A stretch of DNA of 64,000 nucleotides. Origin: Candidatus Saccharimonadota bacterium (GTDB lineage Bacteria; Patescibacteriota; Saccharimonadia; Saccharimonadales; SZUA-47). The DNA lies in the NCBI GenBank assembly GCA_016700315.1, contig CP065013.1, positions 321,449 through 385,448 of the forward strand. Reading direction: 5' to 3'. A program made the position numbers and the translations under genes. Below the pieces are notes generated by a model. That model was not told the DNA's origin and made no database searches. It worked only from the letters and a program-made list of their open reading frames with translations. Below are positions 20,826-46,644 of the stretch, in pieces (within the stretch, counting starts at the first letter, position 1; every line of letters starts with the position of its first letter).

Positions 20826-20860
20826 AACGTGTCGCTTTCAAACCCGGCACAGACGAATCG

Positions 20861-20896
20861 GCCCAGGACCGCCAAGGTCCTGGGCTTGTTCGTTTG
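20861..20896 (+). terminator. hairpin plus T-rich tail downstream of tRNA-Ser(GGA)
   Basis: gcccaggacc-gccaa-ggtcctgggc followed by ttgttcgttt. Confidence 0.45.
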
Positions 20897-21095
20897 AAGA
20901 GAACTCGACGCAGCCCGTCCGATACCTCACCGCGCTCGTGTCCAAAACGCGCATGGCGACTGCATCGGTGCGTTGGTTGGTGAGATGCCTACGAACGCGT
21001 ACCCGTAGCTGCTCGTTTGGTGGACGAGCCCGCAAGAGGTTCGTCCACCACAGGTCGGTTCAGGTCCTTACCCGCGTCCGGGGGAGGTGAGAAAC

Positions 21096-21257
21096 ATGGC
21101 AAAGAACACAGGCAAGGGCTTCCGGCTCGGCGCAGTGAAGTCGCGGTCGCAGACCAAGGGTTCCAGTGGCTTCGTGAAGCGTGACACCAAGACCGGTCGC
21201 TTCCTGGACGTCAAGTCCGACGGCAAGCCGTTCAAGGGCGTCTCGAAGGAGAAGTAG
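21096..21257 (+). CDS. small Lys-rich protein (53 aa) with high-GC codon usage; not in the ORF track
   Basis: Own translation: MAKNTGKGFRLGAVKSRSQTKGSSGFVKRDTKTGRFLDVKSDGKPFKGVSKEK*. SD gggggaggtga lies 5-6 nt upstream. 45 of 52 codons after the ATG end in G/C, and all 11 Lys codons are AAG. Confidence 0.55.
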   Translation: MAKNTGKGFRLGAVKSRSQTKGSSGFVKRDTKTGRFLDVKSDGKPFKGVSKEK

Positions 21258-21343
21258 GCAGGTCTCCCAGCTTCTTCAGTCGGCCGAAGACGTGCGGTGG
21301 ATTCGAAAGCACCTGCAAGACTTCCGCCAAAAAAGGTTTCACT

Positions 21344-27522: not shown

Positions 27523-28095
27523 CTAATTACTTTGTAGGAGTTTTTTGCGGGAGATTAGGTAGCCAGCAGTGGTCGCACCAATAAAAATCGCCACAACGTC
27601 ACCAGGGCCACTGTTTGGTATCTTACCCTCGGTTGGAACATTGGATTGACCTGTTACGGCTTGTGCGCTACTAGCAGCAGCTTTGGCTACAGCCTCTGCA
27701 TCAGCCTTCTTCTTAGCAGCCTCAGCTTCGCTTGCCACTCTTGCAGCTTCGGCCTCTGCAGCCTTTTTAGCAGCTTCAGCGTCAGCGGCAGCTTTTTTGG
27801 CGGCCTGCTCTTCATCGGTTGTCGAAACTCCGCCTTCACTGGACACAACACCGTCAGCTTGATCGGCTTTTTGCTCAACAATTGTAGCTACTTGTTTGGC
27901 GTTGTCATTACCTTTTAGCTTGCGCCATGCCCAGCGGCCGCCAAAAAAGGCGCCCATAATCACAGCGACCGTAACAATCAGACTCAAAAGAGCTAAAGCC
28001 CAGGCGCTAGCCGAGTTATTTGCCCGCTTAGCAGCATAGTACTCCTGTAGTTCTGGTATGTCGGTGTCAGCTCTCTGACGCTTGAAAAATGCCAT
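27523..28095 (-). CDS. hypothetical surface protein with Ala/Lys/Glu repeats and a C-terminal sorting-signal-like tail
   Basis: N-terminal TM, AAKKAAADAEAAKKAAEAEAARVASEAEAAKKKADAEA repeats, and the C-terminus KIPNSGPGDVVAIFIGATTAGYLISRKKLLQSN (motif, hydrophobic stretch, basic tail). Confidence 0.5.
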   Translation of the reverse strand: MAFFKRQRADTDIPELQEYYAAKRANNSASAWALALLSLIVTVAVIMGAFFGGRWAWRKLKGNDNAKQVATIVEQKADQADGVVSSEGGVSTTDEEQAAKKAAADAEAAKKAAEAEAARVASEAEAAKKKADAEAVAKAAASSAQAVTGQSNVPTEGKIPNSGPGDVVAIFIGATTAGYLISRKKLLQSN

Positions 28096-28182
28096 AAGTA
28101 ATACTCCTAATCGCCCACCATTAACGATTTATGTAGCTATTGTACTACAAATTCTACACTTTTGCAAGCAGATTTTAGGGTT

Positions 28183-29823
28183 CTACATCATATCCATGCC
28201 GGCTTGGCCCATAGGGGCAGCTGGTTTTGGCTCTGGTACGTCAACTACAAGCGCGCCCATCGTCATGCTCGTCCCAGCAATCGAAACAGCGTTTTGGATA
28301 GCTTCTTTAGTAACTCTGGTAGGGTCAACCACACCAGCGGCTTTCATATCTACTAATTTGTCGGGGTTGCTGACATCAACACCTTGCCCCGGCTTGGCCT
28401 TACGGACTTGTGGCAGCCACTCGTCAGGGTTGAGCCCAGCGTTTTCAAGAAGGATTCTAAAGGGTTGTTCTAAAGCGCGGAACAAGATACTACCACCGAA
28501 TGACTCTGCTCCTATGCCACTTCCTACAGATGCTGCGGAGATCAGATTGATCAAAGTAACGCCGCCGCCAGGCACAACTCCCTCGGCCATTGCCGCCTTT
28601 ACAGCTGCTACAGCATCATCAACACGGAATTTCTTCTCTTCTATCTCTGTTTCGGTAGCACCGCCAACCTTGATCACAGCCACTTTGCCCGAAAGCGCGG
28701 CCTTCCGTTTATCTAATTGGTCAGTGTCAAAAGTGCTCTTTGAAGCCTTACTCTGTGCTTGTATCTGGGCAATTCTCTCTTTGACGACGCTGGCCTGGCC
28801 GGCGCCCTCGATGATTGTTGTCTCGTCTTTTGTGACAATCACTTTACGAGCCGATCCAATCATCGATAGGTCGGAGTTTTCAAATGTGGCACCCTGCTCT
28901 TCACTGATCACAGTTGCGCCCGTTAAGACAGCTATGTCATTTAAAATGTCCTTGCGGCGATCGCCAAAGCTAGGTGCTTTAACAGCTACTGTGTTGAAAA
29001 CGCCTTTGAGTCTGTTCAAAATCAAGACGCCAAGCGCCTCAGCCTCAACATCTTCGGCTATCAGAACTAGGTCTTTTTTGCCTGCCTGAGCCAGCTTTTC
29101 TAGCAGTGGCACAAGGTCTTGGACATTGCTAATTTTCTTGTCAGTAACGACGACAGCTGGCTTGTTATAGACAGCTTCCATACGTGTTGTGTCTGTGACC
29201 ATATATGGGCTAACGAAGCCTTTGTCAAACGTAAAGCCTTCGACTACTTCGCTTTCTAACTCTAGGCCCTGGCCCTCTTCTACCGTAACAACCCCATCGC
29301 GGCCGACTTTTTCCATAACATCAGCGATCAGTTTGCCAATCTCGGCATCACCTGCACTAATGGTCGCAACCTCGGCCACACGGCCTTTTTTGCCCTCGAT
29401 AGGCTCACTCATTTTTCCTAAACCAGCCAAAACCTCCTGAGCTGCAGACTCAAGACCTTTTCTGAGCTGCATAGGGTTATGCCCAGCCGCAATCAGCTTA
29501 TTGGCTTCGTTCAAAATATGATAGGTCAGCACAGTGACGGTCGTGGTACCGTCGCCAGCGACATCGTTCATCTTGCTTGCTGCTTGTTTGATCAGTTCTG
29601 CACCTACTTTGTAGCCCAGAGTCTCATCATCAACGTCACCGATTTCTACACCTTTGGCAACAGTTACCCCGTCGTGTGTGACGGTCGGACCACCATACGA
29701 TTTGCTGATTACCACGTTACGGCCTTTAGGCCCCATAGTTGTTTTCACTGCGTCATAAAGCAGCTTAGCGCCGCCCAGCACCCTACGGCGAGCATCGTCA
29801 TCGTAAAACACCTTTTTTGCCAT
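28183..29823 (-). CDS. groL: chaperonin GroEL
   Basis: AKKVFYDDDARRRVLGGAKLLYDAVKTTMGPKGRNVV...DGTTTVTVL...C-terminal GMDMM. Confidence 0.97.
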   Translation of the reverse strand: MAKKVFYDDDARRRVLGGAKLLYDAVKTTMGPKGRNVVISKSYGGPTVTHDGVTVAKGVEIGDVDDETLGYKVGAELIKQAASKMNDVAGDGTTTVTVLTYHILNEANKLIAAGHNPMQLRKGLESAAQEVLAGLGKMSEPIEGKKGRVAEVATISAGDAEIGKLIADVMEKVGRDGVVTVEEGQGLELESEVVEGFTFDKGFVSPYMVTDTTRMEAVYNKPAVVVTDKKISNVQDLVPLLEKLAQAGKKDLVLIAEDVEAEALGVLILNRLKGVFNTVAVKAPSFGDRRKDILNDIAVLTGATVISEEQGATFENSDLSMIGSARKVIVTKDETTIIEGAGQASVVKERIAQIQAQSKASKSTFDTDQLDKRKAALSGKVAVIKVGGATETEIEEKKFRVDDAVAAVKAAMAEGVVPGGGVTLINLISAASVGSGIGAESFGGSILFRALEQPFRILLENAGLNPDEWLPQVRKAKPGQGVDVSNPDKLVDMKAAGVVDPTRVTKEAIQNAVSIAGTSMTMGALVVDVPEPKPAAPMGQAGMDMM

Positions 29824-39364: not shown

Positions 39365-40219
39365 CTAGCCGAGGGCGTTTTTGATTCTTTTGATCGACTC
39401 TTCGGGGTAATAATCATCGAACCACATTACCTTCCAGCCGCATTTCTCGGCGGCCATGAGATTGGCGCGCGAATCATCGATAAATAAGATTTCCTCAGGG
39501 AGTACACCTGTTAATCCTTGCGCGATTTCGTATATTTTTGACTCGGGCTTAATAGCGCCGACTTCGGAACTGTCTACCACTGCAGCATAGTCGAGATGTG
39601 GAATCACACCTTTGTCGATCATAATCTGGATAAAACCGGGCATGATGTTGCTTAGTAGGCCAACCTGATAACGTTCAGCCGTCCATTCCAAAAGTTCTTT
39701 CATACCATCAATTGGCTCGATTGCTCCCAGGTAATAGTCAGTCCAGTCTACGCTGCTAACTCCTAATGTTTTGGCAAGAATATCATTAAAATCACTAAGT
39801 TTCATCTCGCCACGACAAACAGCGTCGTTGTAATGCCAGAATAGTGTCTCAATGCGATCATTGGGCACACCCGTTTCCTCTGCTAATACCGAGAAAGCTT
39901 TGTGAAAAAAGCGAACCAAACAACCATTAATATCAAAATAGATAAATTTTAGCGACGACTTCTGTTGCAACGATTTTGCGGCGTGCGGCAAACCCATTAG
40001 CTCGTCTAATGAAACCTTCGTAACTTGGGCGATTCGCTGGATTGTAAAAACAGATGGAGTTTTGATCGCACCACGTTCAATCTTGGCCAATGTTGAATAA
40101 GACAAGTCTGTTGCCTGCGCTAGCTGCTGCTGTGTTAGCCCGGCCGATTGGCGTGCTTGTTGCAAACGTTTTCCAAGACTAACTTCATCAACGGCTTCTG
40201 TATCGCCACCCATATTCAT
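39365..40219 (-). CDS. XRE-family HTH domain fused to a HAD-like hydrolase domain
   Basis: N-terminus LGKRLQQARQSAGLTQQQLAQATDLSYSTLAKIERG. The C-terminal part has IYFDINGCLV (motif I-like), GLLSNIMPG, and LFIDDSRANLMAAE (motif IV). Confidence 0.7.
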   Translation of the reverse strand: MNMGGDTEAVDEVSLGKRLQQARQSAGLTQQQLAQATDLSYSTLAKIERGAIKTPSVFTIQRIAQVTKVSLDELMGLPHAAKSLQQKSSLKFIYFDINGCLVRFFHKAFSVLAEETGVPNDRIETLFWHYNDAVCRGEMKLSDFNDILAKTLGVSSVDWTDYYLGAIEPIDGMKELLEWTAERYQVGLLSNIMPGFIQIMIDKGVIPHLDYAAVVDSSEVGAIKPESKIYEIAQGLTGVLPEEILFIDDSRANLMAAEKCGWKVMWFDDYYPEESIKRIKNALG

Positions 40220-40285
40220 AAGCTTATAGTACCAGTAAATCTGCCTTAAGACTAGTATTAAACGGCTAGCTGCTAACTCTAGGCC

Positions 40286-40456
40286 TTATACAATAAAGCT
40301 CAATACCGTTAACGCCACTACAAAAACCAAAACACCGACAGCACCCCCTGCAGTCAGTGCTGTCTGTTGATTGCCGCCAGTTCTACGAAGTGCTTTAGTG
40401 TAGACCCAAGTACCACTACCGAGTGCTGTTAGAAGGGCTACTAAAGTGTTAGACAT
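40286..40456 (-). CDS. small two-TM membrane protein (56 aa); not in the ORF track
   Basis: Own codon-by-codon translation: MSNTLVALLTALGSGTWVYTKALRRTGGNQQTALTAGGAVGVLVFVVALTVLSFIV*. A strong SD (AAGGAG) lies 9 nt upstream. It lies directly downstream of the HIT gene. Confidence 0.45.
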   Translation of the reverse strand: MSNTLVALLTALGSGTWVYTKALRRTGGNQQTALTAGGAVGVLVFVVALTVLSFIV

Positions 40457-40476
40457 AATAAAATTCTCCTTGCTGT

Positions 40477-40872
40477 TTAAGCGTTCTTAAGTTTTTCGGC
40501 TATTCTGGCTAGTTCATCGTGGTTTGGTTCAGCCTGATCATTGGGCGACTGATATTGCTCATGAGTGTCAAAAGGGAAGAGGTTGGCATGGGCGTGCTCG
40601 ACCTGTAGACCCTCGATCTGTACGGCTATTTTGCGCTTGTCGGGGAAAACTGTACGGAGTTTTTTGGCCACATCCTGAACTGCTTTTGTAAACTGTTGAT
40701 ACTCAAGCGGCGACAGGTCTTCGAAATGAGGAACTTGTTTTTTGGTAATCACTACAACATGCCCAGGCTGAATTGGGTGGATGTCCATGATAGCGATGGC
40801 TCCATCATTTTCGTAAACCTTGTGAGCCGGCAACTCACCCATAATAATCTTGGTAAAAACTGAATCCTGCAT
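40477..40872 (-). CDS. HIT-family (histidine triad) protein
   Basis: Histidine triad VEHAHANLFP and GHVVVITKK. Confidence 0.85.
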   Translation of the reverse strand: MQDSVFTKIIMGELPAHKVYENDGAIAIMDIHPIQPGHVVVITKKQVPHFEDLSPLEYQQFTKAVQDVAKKLRTVFPDKRKIAVQIEGLQVEHAHANLFPFDTHEQYQSPNDQAEPNHDELARIAEKLKNA

Positions 40873-40973
40873 ACCCTTATTATACCTTTAAACACCATCT
40901 ACACTAAATTGGCTCGCATAATTTTAACAGATACGGTAACATATTATAGTAGTTTAGGGCGCGCGACATAACC

Positions 40974-41218
40974 GCGGAGGAGTACCCAAGTGGCTGCTGC
41001 GTGAAACGTAAATTTGTAGACGGTTTGCCGTCCCCTTCAGTTTACGGACACACAGGAGCTACGTGAATAACGTAAGCTTTCAATGCGGAGGAGTACCCAA
41101 GTGGCTGCTGCGTGAAACGTAAATTTGTAGACGGTTTGCCGTCCCCTTCAGTTTACGGACACACAGGAGCTACGTGAATAACGTAAGCTTTCAATGCGGA
41201 GGAGTACCCAAGTGGCTG
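40974..41218 (+). repeat. 111-bp tandem repeat (2.2 copies) whose unit begins with the 5' part of tRNA-Ser(GCT)
   Basis: Units start at 40974, 41085 and 41196, each with gcggaggagtacccaagtggctg. Units 1 and 2 continue with an 88-nt non-tRNA segment, and unit 3 continues into the complete tRNA. Confidence 0.9.
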
Positions 41219-41290
41219 AAGGGGACGGTTTGCTAAATCGTTAGGGGGGCGCAAGTTCCCGCGAGAGTTCGAATCTCTCCTCCTCCGCCA
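41198..41290 (+). tRNA. tRNA-Ser (anticodon GCT), class II, CCA encoded
   Basis: Hand-folded. Acceptor GGAGGAG/CTCCTCC, anticodon stem acggt/atcgt with loop ttGCTaa, long variable arm, T-arm gagag-ttcgaat-ctctc, and G73-CCA. Confidence 0.85.
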
Positions 41291-41504
41291 GAATAAAACT
41301 CTGCTAAAGTGCAATTTAGAATATGTTTATAATCTAAATTAGCACCTGGTGCGGAGTTTTATTCTTTTCCCCAAACAATCGGAATTGTTTGGGGAACTAG
41401 CAATGGCGTGCTGTTTTTCGAGCATTCTAAGTCTATTTTACCTACCGCAGAAGCTTGACCCAATGATAAACGAACCCTTGTGACATTGGTGGTACAATAA
41501 GCTT

Positions 41505-42044
41505 ATGGATAATGATGATAAGACGGGGAACTGGCAGTACCAAACAGACGAAGCGCTACCCGAGCAAGGTACTGATGCAGGGGTAGTACAGCCAATTCAA
41601 TGGTCAGCTTCAGAATATGTCGGGCACGAAAAGTCGTTGGGCTGGTACATAATTTTTGGCAGCGCTTCGTTGATAATCGGAGTTTTGGTTTACGCGCTTA
41701 CCCGTAGCCCGTTTTCGGCTGTGGCGGTTCTGCTAGCCTGCATCTGTTTGGCGGTGTTCGGTGCTAGACAACCTAGTCAAATACCGTACGAGATTGATGC
41801 CAAAGGGGTAAGGGTAGGAAGACGCTTCTTCTCCTACAGTCAATTTAAGTCCTTCTCTCTAGTCCCAGAGGGTGCGATCTACACAATCTGGTTAAGATCA
41901 TTAAAAAAGTACACGCCGACGGTCGCACTGTACTTCGCGCCAGAAGATGCCGACAAGATTATCGACGCACTCGGCCAGTATCTGCCGCACGAGGAACGTG
42001 CCCCCGACGCCATCGACCGAGTCAGCCAACGATTTAGATTTTAG
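41505..42044 (+). CDS. hypothetical membrane protein (179 aa, two TM segments plus a small soluble domain)
   Basis: ORF with the hydrophobic pair YIIFGSASLIIGVLVYAL / AVAVLLACICLAVFG. Confidence 0.5.
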   Translation: MDNDDKTGNWQYQTDEALPEQGTDAGVVQPIQWSASEYVGHEKSLGWYIIFGSASLIIGVLVYALTRSPFSAVAVLLACICLAVFGARQPSQIPYEIDAKGVRVGRRFFSYSQFKSFSLVPEGAIYTIWLRSLKKYTPTVALYFAPEDADKIIDALGQYLPHEERAPDAIDRVSQRFRF

Positions 42045-42118
42045 AGCTTTATTTTTTGATGAATTTGTAATATAATTACCTCTGTTATTGACAGCCTTCA
42101 GCAAGGCATGCAAGATAA

Positions 42119-42195
42119 GCACCCGTAGCTCAGATGGATAGAGCGTCAGTTTGCGGTACTGAAGGTCGTAGGTTCGACTCCTGCCGGGTGTACCA
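42119..42195 (+). tRNA. tRNA-Arg (anticodon GCG), CCA encoded
   Basis: Hand-folded cloverleaf. Acceptor GCACCCG/CGGGTGT (G1-U72), D-arm gctc...gagc, anticodon stem tcagt/actga with loop ttGCGgt, and T-arm gtagg-ttcgact-cctgc. Confidence 0.8.
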
Positions 42196-42349
42196 AATTA
42201 ATAATTCGTACATTGTAAGCACAAGCTACCTGCTAAAAACCTTCAGTTGAAGGGAATAGGTGAGAATTGCCTGTGGCAATTCGCAAGGAAATAAACTCTT
42301 GAAAACTTGTTTTCAAAGAAGTTTTTTCGGGGTCGCCGAAGGTGACCGG

Positions 42350-42367
42350 CTCCTGCCGGGTGTACCA
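42350..42367 (+). repeat. 18-nt direct duplicate of the tRNA-Arg 3' end
   Basis: ctcctgccgggtgtacca occurs at 42178-42195 (tRNA 3' end) and again at 42350-42367, a 172-bp spacing. Confidence 0.85.
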
Positions 42368-42387
42368 GTTTATTAAAGCCCCCTTAT

Positions 42388-42478
42388 GGAAGGGTCGCAT
42401 AGTTGGTCTAGTGCGCTGCACTCGAAATGCAGTATGTCGGAAACGGCATCGAGAGTTCGAATCTCTCCCCTTCCGCCA
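42388..42478 (+). tRNA. tRNA-Ser (anticodon CGA), class II, CCA encoded
   Basis: Acceptor GGAAGGG/CCCTTCC, anticodon stem ctgca/tgcag with loop ctCGAaa, long variable arm, and T-arm gagag-ttcgaat-ctctc. Confidence 0.85.
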
Positions 42479-42491
42479 TATATTTGCCCAT

Positions 42492-42581
42492 GGAGAGGTG
42501 TCCGAGTGGTTTAAGGAAACGGTCTTGAAAACCGTCGTGCCGGCAACGGTACCGAGAGTTCGAATCTCTCCCTCTCCGCCA
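42492..42581 (+). tRNA. tRNA-Ser (anticodon TGA), class II, CCA encoded
   Basis: ggagaggtgtccgagtggtttaaggaaacggtcttgaaaaccgt... gives anticodon loop ctTGAaa, a long variable arm, and T-arm gagag-ttcgaat-ctctc. Confidence 0.9.
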
Positions 42582-42589
42582 AGGAGGGA

Positions 42590-42625
42590 AGCTCACATCT
42601 TCAGATGTGGGCTTTTCTTCTTTAT
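42590..42625 (+). terminator. rho-independent terminator after the tRNA cluster
   Basis: agctcacatc-ttca-gatgtgggct followed by tttcttctttat. Confidence 0.6.
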
Positions 42626-42712
42626 AAAGAAGAGAAATTTGAACATAAAGAGTTCGCTAATTAGTCTTATTACCGAGATATATCTCGGCTAATAGATTAA
42701 TTAGGTAGATTC

Positions 42713-42730
42713 ATCTCTCCCTCTCCGCCA
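42713..42730 (+). repeat. 18-nt direct duplicate of the tRNA-Ser(TGA) 3' end
   Basis: atctctccctctccgcca occurs at 42564-42581 (tRNA 3' end) and again at 42713-42730, a 149-bp spacing. Confidence 0.85.
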
Positions 42731-42922
42731 GCCCTGACTTTTGCATTTTTTGGATTTCTACCCGCGCCCAATTTCTTTCTGAATTAGAAAAAAGTCAGGT
42801 CTATCGGGTCGGCTGCCCAAAAGGACAGAAACGACGTTGTGTGCCTTAAGTATAAGCGCTTTGCGTTTGATTTTTATAGCATTTTATGCTAGTATTATAT
42901 ATGCAAAGTTCAAAACAAAAAT

Positions 42923-44095
42923 ATGCCAGAAAAAGCCCCGTTTAACCCCCACCAATCGTCTCATGACAGCTCTGACCTGGGTGGTGCTGTAGACCCATCA
43001 ATTTTGAGCGGTAACGCCCCTTTGCAGATACGCTTCAACACTTTCGCAGAAGCTAGAACGACCCCAAGACCTTTCTCTGACGAGTTTATTGACACTTTTA
43101 CCGATACTCCTACAGCGATTAACGGTATCAAGAGTTATCTTGACGACGTAAAGCCAACCTACAGAGATAAAGAGGTCATAGGCGACTCAGACCGCATCGC
43201 CGAGCTGTATATTAAAACAACGGAAATGATAGCCCGTAATTTGCGCGTAAAGGTAGACCAGGGTAAAGCTGGTGTAACCGCAGAGCAAATCCAAAGAGAT
43301 GGCGAGGCGACACTCCAAAGACTATGGGGATACAGAGTTAATGTACCAGAGGGGCTGAAACGCCATCATATTAGCGCAACAAACCCGCAGGCAACAAATA
43401 AAGACAAGTTTTTAGATGACGAAACAATATCAGGATTAGAGTATAGGGGTTTCGATTTTAATCGCCCGGGCGTACGCGCCAACTTCCATATTCAGCGTCA
43501 AAACTTTACAACATTTATTATGGCCTATTCCGACGGTCGCGTGCAGGAAAAAATGGCCGGCACGAGCACGATTTTAGACAAAAGAATATACCTAAATCCC
43601 GATATGGAAGCTACGCCAAGACTGTTTGAGCAATTGCTTCAGGCAGCCAACCAAGCAGGTATACCTATACAACTAAAGATGGTTCAACGAGCAACGGAGG
43701 CACTAAACGCACACCTTAAAGCCGCTAAAGGCGATGAAGTAGGGTTGCGCGGCGATGGAATTGTGGTATATACAGACGGCGAACACGCTGATGATACTTT
43801 AGCTATGGTGCTTGCTTTGGCACAGGACAACTCAGACGCTTTTAGGGGCCGTCCTCATAGTCGCACGCCTCAGAATGTTGCCGAAGGTATTGGTATAGCT
43901 GACGAACCAATTCAAGAGCCTGGTATTTCACTAACTTCTCATAGAACAGAGGTGTTGAAGAGTGTTGCCGGACAAGTTGCAGCGTCAGGGAAAAAGGGCG
44001 ACGAAGCGCATGCTATGTTCCGCCATTTATGGCAAAACACGGCGGTAGCCAACGGTATTGACCCCAACAATCTTGCCTTTAACATAGCTACATAA
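42923..44095 (+). CDS. hypothetical protein (390 aa), orphan on a repeat-bounded islet
   Basis: Long ORF. The pattern KRIYLNPDMEATPRLFEQLL...IQLKMV...GDGIVVYTD only weakly reminds me of HopA1/lyase-like families and is not verifiable here. Confidence 0.55.
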   Translation: MPEKAPFNPHQSSHDSSDLGGAVDPSILSGNAPLQIRFNTFAEARTTPRPFSDEFIDTFTDTPTAINGIKSYLDDVKPTYRDKEVIGDSDRIAELYIKTTEMIARNLRVKVDQGKAGVTAEQIQRDGEATLQRLWGYRVNVPEGLKRHHISATNPQATNKDKFLDDETISGLEYRGFDFNRPGVRANFHIQRQNFTTFIMAYSDGRVQEKMAGTSTILDKRIYLNPDMEATPRLFEQLLQAANQAGIPIQLKMVQRATEALNAHLKAAKGDEVGLRGDGIVVYTDGEHADDTLAMVLALAQDNSDAFRGRPHSRTPQNVAEGIGIADEPIQEPGISLTSHRTEVLKSVAGQVAASGKKGDEAHAMFRHLWQNTAVANGIDPNNLAFNIAT

Positions 44096-45866: not shown

Positions 45867-45902
45867 ATAACAGGGTCAGACCCTGACATCTGTTATTTTT
45901 TG
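45867..45902 (+). repeat. REP-like palindromic element flanking the Y1 transposase gene (left)
   Basis: ataacagggtcagaccctgacatctgttattttttg, with inverted repeats CAGGGTC/GACCCTG and ATAACAG/CTGTTAT. Confidence 0.8.
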
Positions 45903-45934
45903 TTATATACAAAGTATAGTATATTTAAGTAGGA

Positions 45935-46558
45935 ATGCCTGGTAAAAATTCTCGTAAAATTTATTCGTCCGAACACTACTATCATGTCTATAACCGTGGT
46001 GTTGGTAAGCAAATTATTTTTCATGACAGCTTTGATAAATCCCATTTCTTACACATAATTAAGCGCCACCTAGACCCAACGGATAAGTCCACTAGGTCTG
46101 ATAAGCTTCCTTACCGCAAGTTTAACGACGACATTGAATTACTCAGTTACTGTCTGATGGGTAACCATTTTCATCTTTTGCTTTACGTCAAAGGCAGGGC
46201 AGAGAATCTACCGATATTCATACAGTCGGTTATGACAGCCTACACAATGCACTATAACAAGCGCTACAAGAGAGTAGGGAGCTTATTTCAGGGAGTATAT
46301 AAGGCGAGTATGATACTTGATGAATCGTACTTGTTACATATAACAAGATACATACACCTTAACCCTAGAAATTATCAAAACTACTTTTATTCGAGTTTGA
46401 GATATTACCTAGATGGCTCTATCTGCCCTAAATGGCTGAACCCAAAACGCATACTAGAGATGTTCGAGAAGGAAGAATATAAAATATTCGTCGAGGATAG
46501 ATTATCTTACGAAGAATCATTGCCGATACTTAAGAAGTTTGAACTTGCCCATCCTTAG
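45935..46558 (+). CDS. IS200/IS605-type Y1 (HUH) transposase-like protein, RAYT-like
   Basis: YHVYNRG, the HUH motif GNHFHLLL, YNKRYKRVGSLFQGVYK, and the catalytic-Tyr helix ITRYIHLNP. It is a single gene flanked by inverted REP-like elements. Confidence 0.8.
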   Translation: MPGKNSRKIYSSEHYYHVYNRGVGKQIIFHDSFDKSHFLHIIKRHLDPTDKSTRSDKLPYRKFNDDIELLSYCLMGNHFHLLLYVKGRAENLPIFIQSVMTAYTMHYNKRYKRVGSLFQGVYKASMILDESYLLHITRYIHLNPRNYQNYFYSSLRYYLDGSICPKWLNPKRILEMFEKEEYKIFVEDRLSYEESLPILKKFELAHP

Positions 46559-46608
46559 CCCTTAGACTAACCATAAATTTCTCGCGCAATGCCACAAAAC
46601 CTATATTG

Positions 46609-46644
46609 CAAAAAATAACAGATGTCAGGGTCTGACCCTGTTAT
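46609..46644 (-). repeat. REP-like palindromic element flanking the Y1 transposase gene (right, inverted)
   Basis: caaaaaataacagatgtcagggtctgaccctgttat is the reverse complement of the left copy with one central change. Confidence 0.8.

Follow-up and report, generated by a model that had tools for sequence, protein, structure and literature searches.

Within a 64,000-nt stretch of contig CP065013.1 from a Candidatus Saccharimonadota bacterium (hereafter, the window), tRNA-Arg(GCG), tRNA-Ser(CGA) and tRNA-Ser(TGA) form a cluster that had been proposed in a first-pass annotation and was placed here by ARAGORN and Rfam (Table 1). The same annotation reported that the last 18 nt of two of these tRNAs recur downstream, and both duplications proved real. 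The tRNA-Arg 18-mer (CTCCTGCCGGGTGTACCA) occurs exactly twice, with no further match in the window at up to two mismatches and none in 100 shuffles; the tRNA-Ser(TGA) 18-mer (ATCTCTCCCTCTCCGCCA) also occurs exactly twice, its only other near matches (two mismatches) being the 3' ends of two other Ser tRNAs, and shuffles yielded a mean of 0.01 matches. A chance origin of both pairs was ruled out by these shuffle controls (roughly zero expected). The enclosed segments, put at about 130-155 bp by the annotation, measure 154 nt (42196-42349) and 131 nt, and neither contains an ORF. Since tRNA-Ser(CGA) lies 20 nt past the distal Arg copy, the Arg module is located within a tRNA operon, which has no terminator before 42590.

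Table 1. Features of the tRNA cluster and its modules (window coordinates).
Feature	Position	Strand	Basis or remark
111-nt unit, two tandem copies preceding tRNA-Ser(GCT)	40974-41195	+	
tRNA-Ser(GCT), intact	41198-41290	+	3' side empty relative to L098
tRNA-Arg(GCG), intact	42119-42195	+	ARAGORN; Rfam tRNA model, 63 bits; proximal repeat at 42178-42195 (3'-terminal 18 nt)
Arg module, left part	42196-42257	+	Sequence; without terminator
Structured core, 90 nt, three hairpins	42258-42347	+	Covariance model R1
Core P1	42264-42271 with 42275-42282		
Core P2, long hairpin	~42288-42328		
Core P3	42331-42337 with 42341-42347		GGTCGCC pairs with GGTGACC; conserved G.U pair inside
Distal tRNA-Arg copy, positions 57-76 (T-loop to CCA)	42348-42367	+	19/20 match; exact 18-mer at 42350-42367
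tRNA-Ser(CGA)	42388-42478	+	ARAGORN and Rfam; without self-copy
tRNA-Ser(TGA), intact	42492-42581	+	ARAGORN and Rfam; proximal repeat at 42564-42581 (3'-terminal 18 nt)
Ser(TGA)-linked module, family 3	42582-42712	+	Sequence; inverted repeat; RNA fold
GGAGGGA	42583-42589		Antisense to acceptor 3' strand
Terminator hairpin, then T-run	42590-42613		
Second hairpin TTTCTTCTTT/AAAGAAGAGAAA			Family 3 module, after the terminator hairpin
Inverted T-arm remnant GAGAAATTTGAAC	~42632-42644		
Direct copy AGAGTTCG	42649-42656		
Palindrome, 48 nt	42657-42704		
GTAGATTC	42705-42712		
Distal tRNA-Ser(TGA) copy, positions 59-76	42713-42730	+	18/18 match

In both modules the upstream tRNA is complete and functional, and the downstream unit consists of a copy of the T-stem 5' strand, a hairpin-rich insert and the tRNA sequence from the T-loop to CCA. 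The left part of the Arg module contains a hairpin (CCTTCAgttGAAGG, 42240-42253) in which a sense copy of the tRNA variable loop, GAAGG, pairs with its own antisense; it is homologous to a hairpin in the Arg element of the related locus L086 and is followed by (A)TAGG, the copy of the T-stem 5' strand. The Arg insert interrupts the T-loop, with one T-stem strand on either side, and belongs to a family of 90-nt, three-hairpin cores that is widespread in Saccharibacteria. Covariance model R1 scored it at 104 bits on the plus strand against 26 on the minus strand, and it is the only core copy in the 64-kb window. The distal Arg copy, which differs from the tRNA at one of 20 positions here, matches at 20/20 in L009 and L010 (21 counting a C shared with the core end). 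Rfam 15 (40000-44000, E up to 10) returned nothing over 42196-42367 or 42622-42730 beyond weak chance hits over the terminator at 42551-42622.

The Ser(TGA) module follows the architecture of the Arg module, except that a 48-nt palindrome unrelated to the core serves as the hairpin insert, and the RNA fold of this module reaches -58.3 kcal/mol (z = -7.2). The left part of this family (family 3) is also found after tRNA-Ser(GCT) in L098 and, truncated, in L103, so that the window and L098 carry the family at different tRNAs, Ser(TGA) and Ser(GCT) respectively, with the cognate repeat in either case. Upstream of tRNA-Ser(GCT) in the window, the 5'-end repeat mentioned in the first-pass annotation was confirmed as a 111-nt unit present twice in tandem. 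Each unit opens with 23 nt that reproduce the start of the tRNA (positions -2 to 21, identical to the 23 nt beginning at 41196) and continues with an 88-nt hairpin-rich insert that includes CCGTCCCCTTCAG, a 13-nt exact antisense to nt 19-31 of this tRNA. The unit varies in copy number, with two in the window and one in L009 and L010, which are otherwise ~98% identical, and it is also present in L098. This tandem is a mirror-image, 5'-side version of the same phenomenon. The scar suggested at tRNA-Ser(GGA) was retained in part: its 61% GC block is real, but no second copy of that tRNA end lies in the window. Recombination scars at four of the five tRNAs are accordingly reduced to self-copies at three, with the GC block alone at Ser(GGA).

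Comparison of the locus with relatives revealed both empty and filled sites. The gap between tRNA-Arg and tRNA-Ser(CGA) is 39 nt in L011, hence the Arg site is empty there, and TTAAAGCCCC, which follows the distal Arg copy in the window, resembles TAAAAGCCCC, found directly after tRNA-Arg in L011. At tRNA-Ser(GCT), the 3' site is empty in the window and filled in L098. These empty sites uphold the view that the repeats are insertion boundaries, but not the integrase footprint to which it had been tied (see below).

A structured core family beside Saccharibacteria tRNA genes

Covariance model R1 located the core in 72 sources, almost all of them Saccharibacteria, with 78 copies on the modelled strand (>59 bits). 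A motif scan recovered 77 stretches, 68 of which come from Saccharibacteria or Patescibacteria MAGs. More than 60 genomes carry cores, which adjoin at least 17 tRNA species. The predicted fold is borne out by covariation: 21 of the 33 core pairs show changes on both sides, paired alignment cells amount to 98.1%, a share that drops to 83.2% after shuffling and does not exceed 47% once partners are shifted by 1-3 columns, and compensatory cells number 262 as opposed to 63 in shuffles. The unpaired nucleotides of the core are strongly conserved, which suggests a function, as an RNA or as a protein-binding site, that the insertion mechanism proposed below leaves unexplained.

The core is always found inside a partial copy of the neighbouring tRNA, in one of two configurations: an intact tRNA followed by the core and a T-loop-to-CCA copy, or the 5' part of a tRNA followed by the core and the intact tRNA. 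By a stringent count, 28 cores are followed by at least 14/20 nt of the end of the upstream tRNA (14 anticodons) and 13 further cores follow the 5' part of the tRNA that lies downstream of them (7 anticodons); exact 20/20 copies of a tRNA end were present at 17 loci, and the 5'-side duplications with a core span 25, 37 or 53 nt. Core junctions replace TTC, AGC or G(CC) in a common GG..C context, with microhomology of 1-3 nt. An automated assessment of T-stem closure around the core gave a mean of 3.86 of 5 pairs, weakly above the permuted mean of 3.37 (maximum 3.63), which we take as a hint only because the registration of the core start was wrong in several loci.

A survey of 115 tRNAs found a copy of the 3' end downstream of 32 and a copy of the 5' end upstream of 22, each with 0 in the wrong-direction control; these frequencies are biased upward since the loci were retrieved via the core motif. 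The modules form a discrete size class of ~105-250 nt, and the distances between copies range from 125 to 273 nt, with a few tandem second copies near 400 nt and none between 410 and 3300 nt (median available flank, 3.5 kb). Such discrete distances speak against remnants of deleted islands, and of the two origins put forward in the first-pass annotation, miniature integrative elements fit better. In 30 of 36 spacers, the 3' third of the tRNA was detected as an inverted copy scoring above all 50 shuffles, while the control, the inverse complement of the 5' 33 nt of the tRNA, remained at shuffle level; in the Arg module of the window this inverted copy is no longer detectable. Among the surveyed loci, exact 3' copies longer than 21 nt were not seen, and a partial tRNA copy without an insert was never found. 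The terminators after the intact tRNA and after its copy are unrelated in most loci, although the 20-mer is identical; in L023 and L041 the repeat runs past CCA to the end of the terminator. A metagenome search with the pattern of the Ser(CGA)-Ser(TGA) junction returned six tRNA clusters with other gene orders, none of them with duplications of this kind, and one chance match.

Two different cores stand in tandem in L087 with three identical 20-mers, and L036 also carries a tandem core pair. Cores that are 92-95% identical occur at different tRNAs, both within one genome and between genomes, and core similarity does not cluster clearly by tRNA type or by genome, a pattern in which frequent retargeting and the exchange of cores by gene conversion look alike. 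The flanks of the Lys(TTT) elements carry derived changes common to five genomes, and those of the two L087 elements have changes in common; the distribution may therefore be largely vertical, with core exchange by gene conversion and true retargeting rare. Because no near-identical genome pair differing by a core element alone was recovered, recent core movement is read from the distribution rather than directly seen.

Neither phage nor plasmid records yielded a match to the core by blastn, and the single match in IMG/VR is a chance one inside a high-GC coding region. Full-text literature searches, incomplete in coverage, returned no description of the modules, and the 90-nt core family seems to be undescribed. 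An integrase, resolvase or reverse transcriptase was absent from the 41 scanned ORFs of the window (among them all those of at least 200 aa except 28082-29089 on the plus strand, which overlaps the chaperonin gene). No cognate autonomous element with the same att or ends was found in the window, the 72 related sources, IMG/VR or the phage and plasmid collections. A Y1 transposase gene located 3.2 kb away is a recent insertion relative to L009; a link with it was rejected, as neither the ends of its element nor its target hairpin resemble the core or the tRNA modules.

Origin of the modules

It is very probable that the 18-mer pairs bracket miniature, non-coding and non-autonomous insertion modules at the T-loop position of a duplicated tRNA 3' end. 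As to how they arose, we tentatively propose a mechanism in which a non-autonomous element enters tRNA loops and survives with the tRNA end duplicated, this duplication being the reason why it is tolerated; we regard the explanation overall as about evenly poised between right and wrong. In the order of events that we infer, a structured element would enter the tRNA gene at an exposed loop, usually the T-loop and sometimes the anticodon loop or a site just past the D-arm, and replace 1-3 nt between GG and C. Survivors would be found only where the interrupted tRNA segment had been duplicated out to the end of the gene, creating the direct repeat, because one intact tRNA then remains. The short inverted target copies left beside the insert would point to fold-back or template-switching synthesis and not to conservative site-specific recombination, and the folded strand could be either RNA or single-stranded DNA. 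The repeat would subsequently offer homology for tandem amplification, loss and the stacking of further elements, and ordinary homologous recombination in these naturally competent bacteria might spread the modules between relatives. Repeats of 18-21 nt represent marginal homology for RecA. Any enzyme involved would have to act in trans, as the element encodes no recombinase. The unrelated terminators would follow more readily if a ready-made element arrived with a tRNA end and a terminator of its own than if the duplication were local.

The alternative that survives best, although we consider it rather unlikely, is that chimeric cDNAs are made by a reverse transcriptase switching templates between a core RNA and the tRNA, or a fragment of it cleaved within a loop, hairpin self-priming giving the inverted segments, and are then integrated at the tRNA gene by homology. 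It would account for the RNA landmarks at which the repeats end. One boundary falls in the T-loop (56/57 or 58/59), in the anticodon loop (past position 37) or in the D-arm. The other coincides with the terminus of the mature tRNA, either CCA or position +1 (deviation 0-2 nt), except that in L023 and L041 it reaches the transcript end, where the terminator stops. The antisense copies are joined to sense copies via loops of 2-7 nt, as expected from snap-back second-strand synthesis; the junction microhomology fits equally, as does a core that folds in tRNA-sense orientation and includes a conserved G.U pair. However, selection for an intact tRNA alone would likewise end repeats at gene ends, the window contains no reverse transcriptase, and the inverted arm without a core is not predicted by simple hairpin cDNA synthesis. 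Whether CCA is present in the copy is uninformative here, as CCA is genomically encoded in all of these tRNAs.

Quite unlikely, in our judgement, is the idea that the core is itself an active RNA, either a small ribozyme or a guide-bearing scaffold. Such an RNA would target tRNA loops via the adjacent antisense copy of the T-arm and variable region, insert at the RNA level by a reaction resembling reverse splicing or ligation and become fixed in the genome by reverse transcription and recombination; otherwise, a chimera of core and tRNA fragment might act as a decoy or regulator of tRNA-directed enzymes.

A similarly low probability is assigned to local replication errors, in which snap-back or template switching at the hairpins of terminators and tRNA arms would create rearrangements of the tandem-inversion-duplication type, the inserts being resident small RNA genes or hairpin elements either caught in these dispensable fragments or inserted into them secondarily. 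The order of tRNA 3' part, terminator hairpin, inverted copy and direct copy is the signature of such rearrangements, the duplicated block of L023 and L041 takes in the whole terminator, one scaffold is common to different insert families, and flank lineages are inherited while cores differ. Three observations stay unexplained in this way: every partial copy comes with an insert, a single conserved 90-nt sequence recurs at so many tRNAs and genomes, and the 5'-side configuration has only ~10 nt of inverted sequence.

The integrase footprint favoured by the first-pass annotation, i.e., attL/attR of an element with a tyrosine or serine integrase that has lost its interior or of a mini-element moved in trans by an integrase encoded elsewhere, appears improbable. 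In its favour, the modules share with the T-loop class of tRNA integration sites a direct repeat from the T-loop to CCA, the tRNA is reconstituted, arrays look like accretion in that the newest element lies closest to the tRNA, and unrelated terminators would be expected of an element bringing its own tRNA end. Against this, neither the modules and their surroundings nor the scanned ORFs contain an integrase gene or fragment, the core is absent from the viral, phage and plasmid collections, and the narrow size class differs from what random deletion would leave behind. The geometry is also wrong: a contiguous core site would comprise two inverted binding sites around an overlap of 6-8 nt (7 nt for a tyrosine recombinase), whereas the T-stem strands are split by the 90-nt core or the 48-nt palindrome. 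Furthermore, a fixed crossover predicts neither 5'-side repeats of three lengths with the same core nor insertion at three loops, and near-identical cores at different tRNAs are likewise at odds with it.

Decay of extra complete tRNA copies, with the 18-mers as their last recognisable parts, is very improbable: similarity with indels does extend upstream of the 18-mers (GAAGGT before the Arg copy, AGATTC before the Ser copy), but only positions ~44-53 and 57-76 are present, split by a conserved foreign element at dozens of loci with no trace of tRNA 5' halves, the polarity is strict, the sizes are discrete, and the empty sites of relatives show compact tRNA spacing with no additional gene. A tRNA intron was rejected as well, since ARAGORN, run with its intron option, left the fragments unjoined and each interrupted copy has an intact one next to it; excision of the core would not restore the tRNA loop because 1-3 nt are missing.

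Relation to known systems and implications

The modules combine traits of several known systems. Islands integrated at tRNA genes include a T-loop sublocation (Williams-type). In islands, prophages and tycheposons (bioRxiv 10.1101/2020.12.28.424599), a direct repeat starting in the T-loop likewise brackets the insert and leaves the tRNA intact, and stacked insertions and partial tRNAs litter streamlined genomes. In contrast, the modules described here are 105-250 nt rather than kilobases long, carry no integrase, cargo or trace of either, have the insert inside the T-arm, include inverted target copies and show 5'-side duplications nearly as often as 3'-side ones. CIMEs, att-flanked non-autonomous integrative elements from the Streptococcus ICE literature, resemble them in being repeat-flanked, lacking recombination genes and forming arrays; a CIME, however, has an identifiable autonomous partner with the same att sites and an integrase, and no such partner was found here, and the repeats of the modules vary in length and position with the loop.

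Elements of the MITE, REP and IS200/IS605 type are also small, hairpin-rich, non-coding, multi-copy and mobilised in trans, and a Y1 transposase is encoded nearby. The Ser(TGA) insert, a palindrome with short flanking repeats, is similar to palindrome-associated elements. Hairpins and the GG..C context would suit a MITE-type element, while the single core in 64 kb and the length of the target-derived repeats would be unusual for one. Insertion of IS200/IS605 elements takes place 3' of a fixed tetra- or pentanucleotide and causes no duplication, and these elements are not known to carry target-derived sense/antisense segments or repeats of 18-58 nt. The Mauriceville and Varkud retroplasmids of Neurospora mitochondria are kilobase-sized, encode a reverse transcriptase and form tRNA-hybrid cDNAs; they share the fusion of a tRNA 3' end including CCA to the element and integration at tRNA genes via that homology, by homologous recombination in the retroplasmids, whereas our elements are ~150 nt long with no reverse transcriptase known. 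Bacterial group I introns and non-canonical archaeal introns (bulge-helix-bulge type) of tRNAs likewise place a structured insert in a loop, be it in the anticodon, T or D region, with a stem of the tRNA closing it, but 90 nt is far below group I size, no Rfam intron matched and an intact copy always lies beside the module. Tandem inversion duplications of Salmonella, which arise by snap-back at quasi-palindromes, are large, unstable and without a dedicated element; they have the same order of copy, inverted copy and copy with junctions at hairpins. Finally, minimal mobile elements of Neisseria also spread by host recombination and conserved flanks, but they lie between conserved protein-coding genes and cause no target duplication.

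Logan unitigs ending inside these tRNAs suggest that the modules break short-read assemblies at tRNA genes, and software for island detection could be misled by them where any repeat of a tRNA end is taken for an integrase att site. If our interpretation is correct, a very small module, parasitic or domesticated, accompanies at least a quarter of the tRNA genes in the Saccharibacteria loci sampled, each one assembled from parts of that tRNA and a conserved structured element, and a new, strongly covarying structured RNA or DNA family would be added to a lineage whose non-coding repertoire is little known. Essential single-copy genes would be open to harmless insertion because the element leaves a rebuilt gene behind. 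The target-derived sense and antisense segments, the mirror configurations and the lack of any enzyme gene in the element may be signs of insertion by template switching or via RNA in bacteria, and if the active-RNA reading were true, the modules would constitute a new class of bacterial tRNA-targeted retro-element.

Duplicated tRNA ends in the window

We confirmed that the terminal 18 nt of tRNA-Arg(GCG) and tRNA-Ser(TGA) each have an exact second copy downstream, the segments between the repeat pairs being 154 and 131 nt long, respectively. On both strands, neither 18-mer had a further match except the related ends of the other Ser tRNAs, and shuffled windows gave about 0 matches, which rules out a chance origin. 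The 5' repeat reported at tRNA-Ser(GCT) was also borne out, as two tandem 111-nt units that each start with the first 23 nt of this tRNA; each unit further contains a 13-nt exact antisense (CCGTCCCCTTCAG) to nt 19-31 of the tRNA. The GC-rich block directly 3' of tRNA-Ser(GGA) was present (~61% GC vs 45% for the genome), but the end of this tRNA had no second copy in the whole window, so that the block differs in kind from the other scars; it may be foreign DNA, and it holds a small ORF starting MAKNTGKGFRLGAVKSRSQTKG. The gene content of the window (ValRS, a ComF-like protein, HSP20 and a type IV secretion cluster with multiple pilins) is indicative of Saccharibacteria (CPR), the name also given to the related loci that were retrieved. 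An insertion of ~740 nt with an IS200-like Y1 transposase ORF, bounded by the inverted repeats ACATCTGTTATTTTTTG and CAAAAAATAACAGATGT, was missing from the otherwise ~98% identical contig L009 of a relative; its site is a REP-like hairpin, CAGGGTC(A/T)GACCCTG, duplicated on either side.

Coordinates of the tRNA-linked and neighbouring features in the window
Feature	Positions
GC-rich block 3' of tRNA-Ser(GGA)	20826-21260
Small ORF in the GC-rich block	21096-21257
Two 111-nt units at tRNA-Ser(GCT)	40974-41195
tRNA-Arg(GCG)	42119-42195
Segment between the tRNA-Arg repeats	42196-42349
90-nt core	42258-42347
Second copy of tRNA-Arg end	42350-42367
tRNA-Ser(CGA)	42388-42478
tRNA-Ser(TGA)	42492-42581
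Segment between the tRNA-Ser(TGA) repeats	42582-42712
Second copy of tRNA-Ser(TGA) end	42713-42730
Y1 transposase insertion	45886-46625
Y1 transposase ORF	45935-46558
Flanking REP-like hairpins	45871-45885, 46626-46640

A structured core in two mirror-image configurations

Of the non-coding insertions (modules), that at tRNA-Arg carries a member of an element family with a conserved fold, constantly fused to pieces of the neighbouring tRNA. When one genome per species was scanned with a 23-base motif taken from the shared region, 77 stretches were returned; 68 came from MAGs of Saccharibacteria or Patescibacteria, and nine were isolated matches in unrelated, mostly high-GC taxa. Alignment of 62 non-identical copies gave a core of 90 nt, in which three hairpins are linked by invariant nucleotides. 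Of the alignment cells, 98.1% were paired; column shuffling lowered this value to 83.2%, and sliding the partners by 1-3 columns to no more than 47%. Both sides had changed in 21 of 33 pairs, and compensatory cells numbered 262 vs 63 in shuffles. The third hairpin was held constant by the search motif and is therefore invariable in the aligned set; in variants recovered subsequently, it is preserved by G-C to C-G exchanges, and its G.U pair persists. On the modelled strand, a covariance model detected 78 copies scoring over 59 bits, from 72 sources, with exactly one copy in the window; the reverse strand reached at most 27 bits. The core had no match in Rfam or in phage and plasmid collections, and its single IMG/VR hit was due to chance.

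The modules combine sense and antisense pieces derived from their target, with microhomology at the junctions. In configuration A, the intact tRNA is followed by, usually, a terminator, the 3' third of the tRNA in inverted and diverged form, a short loop, the variable loop and T-stem 5' strand repeated in direct orientation, the core (standing where the T-loop TTC would be), tRNA positions 57-76 (a 20-mer exact in 17 configuration-A loci) and a second terminator. The inverted copy beat all 50 shuffles in 30 of 36 configuration-A spacers. Configuration B starts with the native promoter and a tRNA copy running from position 1 to a loop, where it stops after the D-arm (about nt 25), at nt 37 or at nt 53; the core, 7-9 further nt of the tRNA, the short inverse complement of these nt, a spacer of ~25-45 nt and the intact tRNA follow. 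The core replaces 1-3 nt (TTC, AGC or G/GCC) between GG and C. A stringent automatic count assigned 28 copies at 14 anticodons to configuration A and 13 copies at seven anticodons to B; most of those left unassigned are located at the edge of a locus or have a degraded copy.

Within configuration A, the Arg module of the window is older and partly eroded, lacking a terminator and having just a remnant hairpin (CCTTCAgttGAAGG) and (A)TAGG ahead of the core; its inverted 3'-third copy is decayed and its distal copy matches at 19 of 20 positions. This module lies inside the Arg-Ser-Ser operon and is probably transcribed together with the tRNAs, because no terminator occurs before 42590. The Ser(TGA) module is built on the same scaffold, with an antisense piece of the acceptor, a terminator, the remnant of an inverted T-arm and direct AGAGTTCG; it carries a 48-nt palindrome as its insert (family 3) and ends with tRNA positions 59-76. 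The Arg module folded better than its own shuffles (z = -3.5), and the fold of the Ser(TGA) module gave z = -7.2.

Filled, empty and stacked sites in relatives

Both filled and empty states were found in relatives, and copy number changes between near-identical genomes. Contigs L009 and L010, in which a neighbouring protein is 96% identical to that of the window, keep both 3' duplications, with the Arg copy exact across 21 nt, and have one 111-nt unit upstream of tRNA-Ser(GCT), compared to two in the window (region compared in L009, 4479-5000). In the more distant L011, the Arg and Ser(TGA) sites are both empty, since 39 nt separate tRNA-Arg from tRNA-Ser(CGA) and tRNA-Ser(TGA) lacks a copy. 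Downstream of tRNA-Ser(GGA) in L011, an exact 20-nt duplicate of the end of this tRNA appears after ~160 nt; the ~95 nt ahead of the duplicate show homology to the right portion of the window Arg segment, with compensatory hairpin changes between the two. A module after tRNA-Ser(GCT) in L098 (truncated in L103) has a left half matching the Ser(TGA) module of the window and closes with 18 nt copied from the end of tRNA-Ser(GCT), followed by a terminator. This terminator is orthologous to the one directly 3' of tRNA-Ser(GCT) in the window, which is thus in the empty state on that side.

Modules also stack in tandem. Contig L012 has two successive end copies after tRNA-Arg and one after tRNA-Ser(TGA), with different inserts between them. 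Two different cores, each with its own terminator, stand behind tRNA-Lys(CTT) in L087:3144-3612, with flank mutations common to both and the 20-mer in three identical copies, and L036:2800-3174 holds a tandem pair of a unit of tRNA-Pro(GGG) 5' half, core and hairpin with a period of 174 nt. At tRNA-Pro(TGG), the interrupted 5' copies of L028 and L084 share a derived anticodon loop (gTCTAGGGa; intact tRNA gTTTGGGa), which suggests old shared ancestry, while that of L060 equals the intact tRNA across 53 nt, suggestive of gene conversion.

Among 115 tRNAs at loci retrieved by the core motif, a sample thereby biased toward core-bearing loci, 32 had an exact copy of their own 3' end (at least 14 nt, within 400 nt downstream) and 22 a copy of their own 5' end within 400 nt upstream; opposite-direction controls gave 0 and 0. 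The exact core motif was missing from about one third of the cases, in which the core was variant or truncated or the hairpin insert was unrelated to it; recurrent non-core inserts were one containing CGCAGATGCTTGCATCGAG and family 3. Copy distances were discrete: 3' copies end 125-273 nt past the tRNA, second copies in tandem occur in a few cases at ~400 nt, and none was found between 410 and 3300 nt.

Eight identical short Logan unitigs (L001-L008) represent the species of the window. Seven begin at 41215-41261, just past the repeated 5' part of tRNA-Ser(GCT), and L002 at 41189, while seven of the eight end within tRNA-Arg (~42146-42164); therefore, tRNA-linked repeats or paralogs break short-read assemblies.

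Origin of the modules

Cores that are 92-95% identical stand at different tRNAs, within one genome and between genomes, and module flanks, e.g. at tRNA-Lys(TTT), have derived changes common to several genomes. Either retargeting is frequent or cores are exchanged between scaffolds by recombination. Our best reading, which as a whole has roughly even chances of being correct, is that a non-autonomous structured element enters tRNA loops and would survive only if a duplication of the interrupted tRNA segment extends to the end of the gene. Insertion would proceed via fold-back or template-switching synthesis and not by conservative site-specific recombination; the repeat would later offer homology for amplification, loss, stacking and spread through host recombination.

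An RNA-mediated origin, supported by the position of repeat boundaries at loops and at mature or terminated RNA ends, is a less probable alternative, at perhaps one chance in five. The homologue of the DUF5673 gene that precedes tRNA-Arg in the window is, in one relative, adjacent to a gene of the 2'-5' RNA ligase family (L102:675-1166), a neighbour that may be relevant if modules arise at the RNA level. Replication errors of the tandem-inversion-duplication type, with inserts captured secondarily, are improbable, and an integrase acting in trans slightly more so. The first-pass annotation had read the 18-mer pairs as integrase attL/attR footprints; such a classical site is unlikely because no integrase, resolvase or reverse transcriptase was found among 41 scanned window ORFs (including all of at least 200 aa bar one overlapping ORF), the insert divides the would-be core site, and one and the same core carries 5'-side repeats of three different lengths. 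Deleted-island remnants, one of the two options it gave, are ruled out by the discrete sizes and the absence of gene debris. A tRNA intron was rejected, as excision would leave the loop incomplete and there is always an intact copy alongside. Simple tRNA decay is very improbable: the modules have no 5' half and hold a foreign conserved element instead, and their strict polarity and the compact empty sites in relatives also contradict a decayed whole gene.

The closest known systems are tRNA-integrated islands with partial-tRNA repeats, including tycheposon arrays (bioRxiv 10.1101/2020.12.28.424599), along with cis-mobilizable mini-elements, MITE-/REP-like hairpin elements, retroplasmid-tRNA hybrid integration and tandem inversion duplications. 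The modules share their repeat logic; however, they differ in size, in having no encoded or linked recombinase that we found, in the insert inside the T-arm, in the mirror-image 5' configuration, in the built-in inverted target copies and in the conserved, covarying core. No published description of them was found in a literature search of incomplete coverage. The invariant unpaired nucleotides of the core point to a function, as an RNA or as a protein-binding site, for which none of the models accounts.
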